The notes beneath the pieces were generated by a model. That model was given only the letters and a program-made list of their open reading frames with translations. It did not search any database and was not told the origin of the DNA. DNA of 64,000 nucleotides from Verrucomicrobiia bacterium (GTDB taxonomy: Bacteria > Verrucomicrobiota > Verrucomicrobiia > Palsa-1439), in the NCBI GenBank assembly GCA_049510215.1, contig JBEKZD010000011.1:28151-92150 (forward strand). The letters run 5' to 3'. Positions 917 to 3,900 of this stretch are shown here, in pieces. The position numbers and the translations under genes were made by a program. Within the stretch, counting starts at the first letter, position 1; each line of letters starts with the position of its first letter.

Positions 917-3900
917 TCATTCCGTCGCCTCGCCAACTCCAAAGTACGTGCAATCGGGATGATGAAACACCAGCGCGCTGACGCTAGCTTCCGGATCCAT
1001 CATGAAACCTTCGGTCAATTGCACGCCGATTTCTTCCGGTTTGAGTAGCTTCCAGATGCCGGCTTGATCTTCGAGCGCCGGACAGGCGGGGTAGCCGAAG
1101 CTGTAGCGGTGGCCCCGGTATTTCGTCGTGAACCGGTCGATCATCGTCATGTCGGCGGGATCGGGGAAACCCCAATCTTCGCGGATATGACGGTGCAACC
1201 ATTCGGCGGCGGCCTCGGCGGTTTCGAGCGCGAGCGCCTGTAAAGCGTGCGATTTCAGGTATTCTCCGCGCGCTTTGTATTCTTCGGCCCGTTCGCGGAT
1301 GCCGGTGCCGGCGGAGACGACAAACAGGGCGAGCGAATCACGTAACAGGCGAGACGCCTGCGCAACTGGCGGAAGAACGTAGTCGGACAGGCACAGGCCG
1401 TCTGGTTTGCGCTGGCGGTGGAAGGCGAAGGTGTGAAGTAGCGCGGGCGTCCCGCCCGTTTCTTTGGCGCTACCGGAAGAACTGAACGGGCGAGACGCCC
1501 GCGCTACTTGATAAACCTTGATCGAGTTTCCATCCGCTTCCGCATCAAAATACTGCCACACGGCTTTGACCTTCATGAATTTTAACGCTTCACTCTTCAA
1601 CTCTTCAACCGCCGCCGCCAGCTCCAGCGCTTTCGGATCGCGGGCAGCGAGCGCCTTCTCGAAGTTGGATTTGAATCCGAGATGCCGGACATACAACATC
1701 TGTGGGTTGATGTAGCTCCAGATCTCCTGCAGCTGCGGCACGTCGCGCACTTTGCGGTCCGGGTAGGGCGGCGGAATCGGCGGAAGATCAATGCGAACAC
1801 GACTGCTGCGTTGGGTGGATTCGGGAAAGTCGACGGCGGCAGGCCCGGTCGCGACAGGAATGTCGCTCCCACGATGCTCTTCCATGACTTTGTCCCGTTC
1901 CGCGGGGTCGGTGAGACGGTTCATGATCGAGAGGCCGGTCATGGCGTCTTTGCAATAAATGACCACCCGCTCATAGCTCGGGGCGATGCGCGTCCGGGTA
2001 AACTTGTCACTCAGCGCCGCGCCGCCGACCAGCAATGGGACGGTGATACCGGCCTGTTTGAGATCGCCCGCGGTGATGGCCATTTGTTGCGCGCTCTTCA
2101 CGAGCAGACCACTCAAGCCGATGACGTCGGGCTTGTGTTCCTTGTACGCCTTGATCAATTCCTCCGGCGGCACCTTGATGCCGAGGTTGATGACCTTGTA
2201 ACCGTTGTTCGAGAGAATGATCTCGACGAGGTTCTTGCCGATGTCGTGCACGTCGCCTTTGACGGTGGCGAGGATGACCTTGCCCTTGGTCGAATCGGCT
2301 TTCTTCTCCATAAAGTTTTCGAGATGCGCGACGGCGGCCTTCATCGCCTCGGCGCTTTGCAGCACCTCGGCGACGATCAACTCGTTGGCGTTGAACAGGC
2401 GCCCGACCTCCTTCATCCCGTTCATGAGCGGGCCGTTGATGATGTCGAGTGGCGCGGCGCCTTCCTTGAGCTTCAGATCGAGGTCGGCGATCAAGCCTTC
2501 CTTCGTGCCTTCGAGGATGTAGTTGGCGAGGCGGCCGTCGAGAGGCAGGTCGGACGTCTTCTTCTTCACGCGGCTTTCGGCGGTGCGGAAATGCTCGTTG
2601 ACAGCGGCGATGTGATGCTGGTTGATCGCGGCCCGCTGTTCCTTCGTCTGCCGACGATAATCGCGCGGTGCATCTAATCCTTCGTGTGGATGATTCCATA
2701 GCAAATCCTCGACGAGTTTCTTTTCCGCGTCGGGGATGGTGGCGTACCGCTCCAGCTTCTCGGCGTTGACGATGGCAAGATCGAGTCCCGCTTTGGTGCA
2801 GTGGTAGAGAAACACCGAGTTGATCACCTCGCGCGCGGCCGGCGGCAGACCGAAGCTGACGTTGCTGACGCCCAGCACGGTCTTGCTCCGCGGCAATGCT
2901 TCCTTGATCAGCCGCACGCCCTCGATTGTCTCGACGGCGCTGCCGATGTAGTTCTCGTCGCCCGTCGCGCAAGGGAACACCAGCGCGTCGAAAATCAGGT
3001 CTTCTTCGGGAATCCCGTGTTCGGTGCAATACTTGTGGGCGCGCTGGGCGATGGCCAGTTTCCGTTCCCGGGTGATGGCCTGCGCCTGCTGTTTGTCCTC
3101 GTCGATCGAACCAATGACCACCGCTGCGCCGTACTTTTTCAGCAACGGCAGCACCTTGTGGAATTTCTCTTCGCCGTCCTCGAAGTTGATCGAGTTGATG
3201 ATGCTCTTGCCGAGGCAATAAGTCAGGGCCCGCTCGACGGCTCGCGGGTTCGTCGAATCGATCATCAACGGCACTTTGACCTTGTGAATCACCTTCTCAT
3301 AAAAGCGGTCGATGTCGGCCAGTTCGTCGCGGTCGGTGTTTTCCAGGTTGATGTCGATGATGTGCGCGCCGCTCTTGACCTGCGCGCGGGCGATCTCGGC
3401 CGCCTCCTCGAATTTCTCGTCCGTGATCAGCTTCTTGAACGCGCGCGAGCCGACCTCGTTGGTGCGTTCGCCGACGAGCAGGGGACGGTTGTCGTCGGTC
3501 GCCTCGACCAATTCGATGCCGGTGTAGTACGACTTGCGCGGCGCGCGGAATCTCCTCGGCGCCTTGCCTTCCACCATCTGCGCAATGGCTTTGACGTGGG
3601 CGGGCGTCGTACCACAGCAGCCGCCGACGATGTTGAGCCAGCCATTCTTGACGAACCGCTCCAAGGACGAAGCCAGCGATGTCGGCGTTTCGAGATACAA
3701 ACCTTCCTCGTTCGGCAACCCGGCATTCGGGTAACACGACACGCGCGTGTTGGCCATCTGGTGAATAGTGCGGATGTGATCGGTCATGAATTCAGGGCCG
3801 GTCGCGCAATTCAACCCGATGCTGAGCAAGTCGACGTGCTGCAGAGACGCGACGAATGCATCCGCGGCCTGGCCTGCGAGCATCGTGCCCGTCGGTTCGA

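Follow-up and report, generated by a model that had tools for sequence, protein, structure and literature searches.

Dispersed palindromes with a GTAG head, known as repetitive extragenic palindromic (REP) sequences, their dimers and the associated tyrosine transposases (RAYT or RayT) have been described by Nunvar 2010 (PMC2817692), Bertels & Rainey 2011 (PMC3116915) and Di Nocera et al. 2013 (PMC3733652). The last of these papers catalogues intragenic GTAG REPs, most of which belong to the verrucomicrobium Opitutus terrae. Intragenic units of the O. terrae GTAG-19 family encode the peptides VARASRP, GARASRP, (H)GRDARAT, TGGTPVP and GTGVSPV, GTAG-19 dimers encode roughly 15-40 amino acids, the figure given for published dimers being 20-30 aa, and some REP dimer classes have variable spacers, according to that paper (PMC3733652). 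The subject of the present analysis is a dimer of such units located in frame within metH, the gene of the cobalamin-dependent methionine synthase, in a stretch of 64,000 nucleotides (the window) from contig JBEKZD010000011.1 of a Verrucomicrobiia bacterium (assembly GCA_049510215.1). The original prediction, made from the letters of the window, took this element for a palindromic repeat of the dispersed kind that has been inserted, with the frame kept, in the activation domain of MetH, and this interpretation is supported. Its remark that in-frame palindromes are rare outside Rickettsia is outdated, considering the intragenic GTAG REPs listed in the 2013 catalogue (PMC3733652). In-frame REPs in Verrucomicrobia, including those of this family, are already described, and metH with three insertions is a new host case.

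The window unit is like those of the GTAG REPs, of the hairpin-forming REP doublets (REPINs) and of the BIMEs (bacterial interspersed mosaic elements) by its length of 21 nt, its GTAG head, its 6-bp GC stem and its 3-nt loop. Heads-outward dimers, variable spacers, dispersed copies and RayT genes flanked by units are further features in common with the GTAG REP systems, and in-frame copies encoding VARASRP, GRDARAT and TGGTPVP are in common with GTAG-19 of O. terrae. The listed GTAG-19 peptides are frame translations of the window 21-mer or of its near variants, the identity being drawn from the encoded peptides. Unlike in the published GTAG REPs, the host gene is metH, which the published host genes do not include; moreover, three separate insertions occur in one gene, and the same loops of its relatives have been struck by several families.

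Two other systems deserve comparison. The Rickettsia palindromic elements (RPEs; Ogata et al. 2000, cited in PMC3733652) are likewise in-frame palindromes in genes that stay functional, in supposed surface loops. They differ in being longer (RPE-1) or CGTC-tagged (RPE-4 and RPE-6, Di Nocera classes), AT-rich, devoid of a dedicated RAYT and found in Rickettsia only; the relation to the metH element is one of analogy only, composition, size and host lineage setting the two apart. In-frame bacterial miniature inverted-repeat transposable elements (MITEs; Delihas 2011, PMC3184786) are similar as small non-autonomous repeats that extend or interrupt open reading frames (ORFs) without destroying them. 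The terminal inverted repeats of MITEs stem from insertion sequences of the DDE type, and MITEs make target-site duplications (PMC3184786), whereas the metH element consists of two GTAG-headed hairpin units and shows no duplication. The gene and the parts of its insertion are as follows.

917-4534, minus strand: metH, cobalamin-dependent methionine synthase, host of the insertion, an intact ORF of 1205 aa
1436-1507, minus strand: in-frame insertion of 24 codons, peptide VARASRPFSSSGSAKETGGTPALL, made up of the REP dimer (70 nt) and 2 nt
1487-1507, minus strand: REP unit 1, leading when the sense strand is read, GTAGCGCGGGCGTCTCGCCCG, agreeing with the family consensus at 21/21 positions
1459-1486, minus strand: spacer between the REP units, 28 nt, encoding FSSSGSAKE, with no relation to that in the intergenic dimer
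1438-1458, plus strand: REP unit 2, inverted, GTAGCGCGGGCGTCCCGCCCG, 20/21 to the consensus

The inverted repeat predicted in metH proved genuine, with arms of 25 nt each (1436-1460 and 1485-1509) that are 96% complementary and have 24 nt between them. For the element itself a span of 73 nt, 1438-1510, had been given; the start was correct and the end was set 3 nt too far, since the head-to-head extent GTAG...CTAC is 1438-1507, 70 nt. Each arm of the dimer is the 21-mer GTAGCGCGGGCGTCTCGCCCG, in which the GTAG head and a CG are followed by the unit's own hairpin CGGGCG-TCT-CGCCCG with a 6-bp stem and a 3-nt loop. This is a short unit in the range of REPs (20-40 nt) with a GC-rich stem-loop, the stem being CGGGCG/CGCCCG and the loop TCT. 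The GT(A/G)G head of REPs is present as GTAG in five of the six strict copies in the window, the remaining one reading GTTG, and the inverted units of the metH element are able to pair into a long hairpin. Folding of the dimer as RNA gave -56.5 kcal/mol (z = -10.4). As judged from its sequence, the metH element is a heads-outward dimer of GTAG-headed REP units, REPIN/BIME-like. A scan of the whole window against Rfam at gathering thresholds matched no family, which indicates that the element is not a curated RNA, and blastn found no plasmid that matched the insert region.

The sense strand around the insert reads CAA/GTA GCG ... CTA CTT/CAC, the slashes marking its borders, which corresponds to 24 whole codons (window 1436-1507). 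The 21-mer is free of stop codons in five of the six reading frames, the sole closed one being the forward frame that reads TAG, and its open-frame translations are VARASRP, SAGVSP, RARRPRY, GRDARA and GETPAL. The reading frame of metH has stayed open because the unit is stop-free in five of six frames and the insert measures exactly 24 codons. As had been predicted, the peptide VARASRPFSSSGSAKETGGTPALL lies within the S-adenosylmethionine (AdoMet) activation domain, inside an intact MetH of 1205 aa, in which S-methyl_trans, Pterin_bind, B12-binding_2, B12-binding and Met_synt_B12, all five domains, scored above the cut-off in a Pfam profile search. Every catalytic signature is retained (GDVHDIGKN, GGCCGT and RYSFGYPACP). 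The identical 1205-aa protein, insert included, was found on at least 24 independently assembled contigs, and an assembly chimera or artefact as the source of the insert was therefore ruled out. The tryptic peptides across the insert are ASRPFSSSGSAK and ETGGTPALLHTFAFHR.

The comparison with MetH homologs (the full-length L112 gene, L119, L120 and the metagenome loci alone served as orthologs) confirmed the expectation that they are shorter at this point. The connection from GN to FxFxRQ comprises 15 aa in 28 of the 45 parsed MetH copies from related loci and 8 aa in P0014 (SLKLQG/HT) and P0022 (AIKLPD/HT), as against 32 aa in the window. Removal of the 24 codons from the window metH leaves SIKVYQ/HT, an 8-aa connection as in P0014 and P0022, and removal of 8 further codons (1343-1366), which form a second insertion, leaves VLPP/RDS, matching VNPP/RDS of P0005, P0006 and P0008. 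The same peptide was also sought in relatives without the DNA palindrome, as the original prediction had proposed: homologs without the palindrome are also without the peptide, and a similar peptide was seen just once, as SGARPSRPFSSGEKQHDTGETPALL in the full-length L112 gene, where the palindrome is present in a degenerate copy and encodes it. An origin of the repeat from an ancestral MetH loop was ruled out, the 21-mer being found between genes of the window and also in many phyla. The best protein matches, P0001-P0003, were rejected as orthologs, being orphan metH 3' fragments and not full genes. When the 126 aa surrounding the insert were used as a protein query, short fragments only were returned, none with the insert. 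Both word-indexed searches with MetH segments yielded nothing but short or partial proteins, which they seem to favour, and missed the known full-length ones, namely the 1185-aa L112 protein and that of the window, so that their failure to yield further insert carriers is uninformative.

The question whether the insert maps to a surface loop was addressed with an AlphaFold2 model of the last 360 MetH residues, computed from 33 sequences (mean predicted local distance difference test, pLDDT, 79; predicted TM-score 0.73). The insert, model residues 164-186, is a coil of low confidence between two beta strands, 159-163 and 187-192; for residues 171-180 the pLDDT is about 53, and for most of the remaining domain 80-95. 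Compared to the Thermus, E. coli and human structures that have been solved for the MetH activation domain, the model gave TM values of 0.59-0.69. The solved homologs have a short turn at the insert position, according to an HMMER alignment to Thermus MetH that smeared the insert across the adjacent strand and is to be used cautiously; the insertion was placed from multiple alignments instead. The model suggests that the insert is probably a 24-residue disordered surface loop at a beta-hairpin turn of the AdoMet-activation (reactivation) domain.

It is very probable that a GTAG-REP dimer, of the family to which the published GTAG-19 peptides belong, has been inserted in the MetH beta-hairpin turn and is now a translated loop. 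On this reading a REP dimer entered the DNA for the beta-hairpin turn of the AdoMet-activation domain, the metH frame stayed open, and the element is read as a 24-residue loop. The copies may have been made by a RayT-type transposase acting on single-stranded hairpin DNA, as in the published REP model. Only stop-free, frame-preserving insertions in permissive loops would survive selection on metH, and the insert would be nearly neutral for the enzyme. A second single unit of 8 codons and an older, degenerate unit would have entered two other variable segments of the gene likewise.

1343-1366, minus strand: single REP unit in a second MetH loop, VAQASRLL, 8 codons GTT GCG CAG GCG TCT CGC CTG TTA
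1851-1872, minus strand: degenerate GTGG-headed REP-like unit GTGGGAGCGACATTCCTGTCGC, peptide HRGSDIPVATG, in the linker of the B12 and activation domains

The unit proper of the first of these, 1346-1366, has retained its stem through a compensatory change from G-C to A-T. At the place of the second, relatives read CGSALPGATG or CGSTLPGATG, words that are encoded in loop 2 of L113 by GTGGGAGCGCCCTTCCGGGCGCGAC; with about four hairpins of this sort expected by chance in each window, this unit is less certain.

The age of the insertion can be approached through the locus L112, whose metH has 76.9% nucleotide identity to that of the window and the same upstream synteny (SQS_PSY, PEBP, metH). The full-length metH of L112 contains an insert of exactly 70 nt with the same starting codon position. 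The arms of the two inserts are identical at 17/21 and 19/21 positions and the spacers at 15/28, the first 8 spacer nt, TTCAGTTC, being common to both; this octamer is present neither in the intergenic dimer of the window nor in the consensus of 188 copies from other genomes. The left unit of L112 has retained its own hairpin via a compensatory G10C/C18G pair, and the stem of the whole insert is weaker (-38.7 kcal/mol, compared to -56.5 in the window). The insertion looks old because its 70 nt are also present, with the codon position unchanged, in the full-length L112 gene, and a single old insertion is the simplest reading of both sequences. In MetH, three peptide insertions of REP origin are tolerated by a large conserved enzyme, and one of them has apparently been kept across 23% nucleotide divergence; metH is a well-documented example in favour of the view that new loops in proteins arise from small mobile palindromes. 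Taken alone it changes little, because both the phenomenon and the repeat family have already been published.

Other copies of the metH 3' half were found to contain different palindromic dimers in the insert loop, at positions a few nt apart, and some metH copies have no palindrome there. A similar pattern of recurrence was seen in MetH loop 2 and in the linker. The palindromes in the insert loop are the following.

L112, orphan copy: palindrome GTAGGAGCGACCTCCCGGTCGC...
L113: palindrome GTGGGAGCGGTTTCCAACCGC...
L114: palindrome GTAGCGGCGGTCTGCGACCGCC...
L113 and L114: a heads-inward pair
L120, L121 and L122: palindrome of the GTCATTCCGAGC... type

A repeat of the GTCATCCTGAGCG...CGCTCAGAATGAC kind is present in frame in MetH loop 1 of L120 and of L121/L122, where it is read as CHSERSEESQ... 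and RHSELVEESQ....

These strikes on one loop bear on the alternative that the window and L112 gained the dimer independently at the same codon, the element targeting the site, for example through a pre-existing hairpin or REP. We consider this unlikely. At least five other palindrome families occur in the same loop of other metH copies, a few nt apart, the arms of the window insert are young-looking (41/42 to the consensus), and Xanthomonas recB genes carry REPs at about the same site, as reported by Di Nocera et al. (PMC3733652), all of which would fit repeated targeting. However, both inserts have exactly 70 nt and the same codon position and share TTCAGTTC, which the intergenic dimer of the window and the consensus of 188 copies lack, and one ancestral event is more parsimonious.

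Several observations weigh against the REP-insertion reading or against parts of it. The flanks of the insert show no transposition event, target motif or duplication. A motif scan of the 64-kb window detected no RayT, the scan being a crude HUH/Tyr regular expression that is not proof of absence. The structural model was built on 33 sequences, with a mean pLDDT of 79. Of 42 positions in the window arms, 41 agree with the consensus of the family, although the insertion apparently predates a nucleotide divergence of 23%; such conservation exceeds what is expected of a neutral passenger and points to gene conversion, to a renewed insertion at this site or to selection acting on the hairpin. The local hairpins, moreover, are retained because paired bases have changed together (G10C/C18G in L112, an A-T pair in 1346-1366), and these compensatory changes fit pure neutrality badly; template switching within quasi-palindromes could be a further source of these changes, as far as can be said from two sequences.

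The same facts could be read in favour of a hairpin kept for a role in the metH mRNA or DNA, such as pausing of ribosomes between folding units, processing by RNase III or RNase E, or binding of a protein that adjusts metH expression, with the peptide as a by-product. The RNA stem is indeed very stable (-56.5 kcal/mol, z = -10.4), the arms shared by the window and L112 (17/21 and 19/21) are conserved above the spacer (15/28) and the gene (76.9%), compensatory pairs occur in the left unit of L112 and in the 1346-1366 unit, and a further dimer is located upstream of metH at 4661-4728. On the other hand, the loop of the relatives holds at least five unrelated palindromes or none, which implies that no particular structure is needed, and the long stem of L112 has decayed to -38.7 kcal/mol. 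The insert is present in two sequences only, too few to judge covariation, template switching in quasi-palindromes yields compensatory changes without selection, and Rfam gave no match; a hairpin role is consequently very unlikely. Insertion of a REP dimer, with the peptide tolerated in a loop, is better supported than either this role or an independent gain, and better than a third alternative that concerns the metH 3' end and is discussed below.

The distribution of the unit within the window was also examined. The 21-mer GTAGCGCGGGCGTCTCGCCCG occurs six times with no more than three mismatches, compared to no occurrence in 100 shuffles, the strict sites being 1438-1458(+), 1487-1507(-), 4661-4681(+), 4708-4728(-), 1346-1366(-) and 14732-14752(-); looser variants were found at 49067-49089(-) and 36683-36705(+). 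All units outside metH are intergenic, namely five of the eight (six strict and two loose) in 64 kb.

4661-4728, no strand assigned: intergenic REP dimer of the 21-mer family, arms of 22 nt, perfect, spacer of 24 nt
14732-14752, minus strand: intergenic single REP GTAGCGTGGGCGTCCCGCCCG, between convergent genes
49067-49089, minus strand: intergenic single REP variant GTAGGACAGGCGTCTCGCCTGTC, a looser match
36683-36705, plus strand: intergenic GTGG-headed REP variant GTGGGACAGGCGTCCCGCCTATC, whose first base doubles as the final one of the stop codon upstream

The intergenic dimer at 4661-4728, which folds at -62.2 kcal/mol, had been described as almost identical to that of metH. This holds for the arms, which are common to both and perfectly paired over 22 nt, and not for the spacers, which are unrelated (24 and 28 nt). 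A dimer copied whole, with a conserved spacer, as in a strict REPIN, was not seen, a weak test with only two dimers in the window. The intergenic dimer is situated in the 258-nt divergent region between the start of metH (4534) and that of the PEBP gene (4793), which places it within or close to the promoter or the 5' untranslated region of metH.

The occurrence of the family in other genomes was studied by scanning one genome per species for exact matches to the 21-mer, two of its positions being given as Y. Among the matches listed, it was found in more than 111 loci, several per metagenome-assembled genome (MAG), most of them from Acidobacteriota. The exact sequence GTAGCG(C/T)GGGCGTC(C/T)CGCCCG is present, among the same matches (L001-L111), in Acidobacteriota, Planctomycetota, Verrucomicrobiota, Chloroflexota and Armatimonadota, and further in Cyanobacteria, Alphaproteobacteria, Ignavibacteriae and Clostridia. 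The occurrence of an identical REP in many phyla fits strictly vertical REPIN-RAYT inheritance poorly and suggests horizontal spread. The consensus of the 188 copies from other genomes retains GTAG. In the 111 loci listed, inverted pairs less than 400 nt apart are all heads-outward, with none heads-inward, and direct tandem pairs occur as well.

The association with RayT was established in related genomes. In the Verrucomicrobiae MAG locus L088, a RayT-like gene has dimers of the 21-mer on both flanks. Its ORF contains intact HUH (HVH) and tyrosine (YYVTRNP) motifs; it scored 78.7 bits (E = 4e-22) with NCBIfam REP_Tyr_transpos, just below the cut-off of 80, and 23.7 bits with Pfam Y1_Tnp, for which the cut-off is 23, and many of its homologs are named RayT by JGI. 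The RayT genes of L116 and L118 have GTAGCGCGCGCGTCTCGCG(C/T)G units at the gene ends, on both sides in L118; these units have the same head and loop as the 21-mer and a covarying stem. The RayT homologs L116:4001-4639, L117:4001-4654 and L118:426-1178 are located between genes of the same strand, a T2SSE pair and an Amuc_1100-like pilus cluster, with stop and start codons overlapping (TGATG in L116) or nearly abutting. This arrangement suggests expression by read-through and translational coupling with the host operons.

Insertions in frame are not restricted to metH. Five other proteins, namely an ABC-F protein, a Ser/Thr kinase, a DEAH helicase, a GDSL/DUF7133 protein and CarB, were found to contain the 21-mer family in frame between their Pfam domains, and for 41 of 200 units the frame is open over at least 80 codons to either side. 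The RayT-like gene of L088 is itself part of carB (L088:377-4384, minus strand), where the complete RayT-like ORF and its flanking REP dimers are in frame and stop-free in an open frame of 1336 aa. The RayT-like part is at about 2330-2800, the REP dimers are at 2196/2299 and 2811/2914, and CPSase_L_D3 is split at residue 484. The CarB of L094 (1192-4527), 85% identical to that of L088, has a single REP at the site of the RayT insert; one site with a single REP in one genome and REP-RayT-REP in another may also be counted in favour of the independent gain considered above for window and L112. Other RayT homologs (P0174, P0189, P0226, P0182 and P0211) read into AlaRS, in three diverged proteins, or into a RecG-like helicase, in two. 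Nothing relevant on RayT genes lying within host genes was found in a search of the literature.

It is tempting to go further and propose that the REP/RayT system of this verrucomicrobial lineage actively colonises a few permissive loops of essential proteins, the metH dimer being either a targeted insertion or the scar of a REP-RayT-REP element, although we regard this as rather unlikely. An intein-like persistence of RayT in carB, alaS and the recG-like gene would follow from the fact that imprecise deletion would kill the host gene. The repeated strikes by different palindrome families on the same MetH loops, and on one loop of CarB, would fit such colonisation. If this were true, REP turnover would be a source of loop diversity in core enzymes. 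The RayT genes in frame in carB, alaS and the recG-like gene, the arrays of orphan metH 3' fragments and the repeated strikes on the same MetH loops are more novel than the metH insertion, which may serve as an entry point to the less-described persistence of RayT in housekeeping genes and to a cargo hotspot, with orphan fragments, at the metH 3' end. The identity of the 21-mer in different phyla is likewise among the more unusual observations.

The orphan fragments were observed in L112, L113 and L114. The L112 locus contains a full metH at 2298-5855 and an orphan 3' fragment at 8001-9524, and the C-terminal end of MetH is present in six copies in L113 (tblastn) and in four in L114. The fragments are nested after one full metH and every one reaches the gene end, their 5' ends corresponding to nt 1945, 2323, 2706, 3329, 3434, 3487 and 3499 of the L112 metH. 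Toxin-antitoxin pairs, CHAP, DUF6345, Big_7 and an insertion sequence are the cargo between them. Compared to the full copy, the identity of the fragments is mosaic, 98-99% over the first ~300 nt and then ~85%. Among 85 metH loci, more than one metH copy was found only in L112-L114 and L190. The metH 3' end looks like a hotspot of cargo insertion, possibly through Campbell-type recombination.

In the third alternative, metH 3' ends would be exchanged by recombination, and the palindrome would mark the site of this exchange or be that site. The mosaic orphan fragments of L112, L113 and L114, the duplication of the window metH tail (47 nt) and the presence of different palindromes in the same loop of different fragments are what such a site might produce. 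No fragment, however, has its 5' end at the palindrome (~nt 2910-2981 of the L112 metH), and the REP family is present in many unrelated genes and intergenic sites without such arrays, so that this role can hardly be credited, and insertion of a REP dimer into a permissive loop is retained as the explanation. The duplicate of the metH tail (SALVFHHPDFTYF) in the window is ~47 nt long, at about 834-880, just past the stop codon and a terminator-like hairpin, and is followed by a gene for an Mrr-type endonuclease.

Two other palindromic repeats were noted near metH. A second GTAG family forms a dimer, GTAGGGGCGCACCTGTGTGTGCGCCC and GTAGGGGCAGACCTGCGTGTCTGCCC, at 6539-6612 between convergent genes, and the TAG of its head doubles as the stop codon of the SQS_PSY gene (5445-6542). 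A different palindromic repeat, GTCATCCTGAGCG...CGCTCAGAATGAC, is located at about 5382-5447 in the PEBP/SQS_PSY intergene, where the reverse frame reads CHSERSEES.

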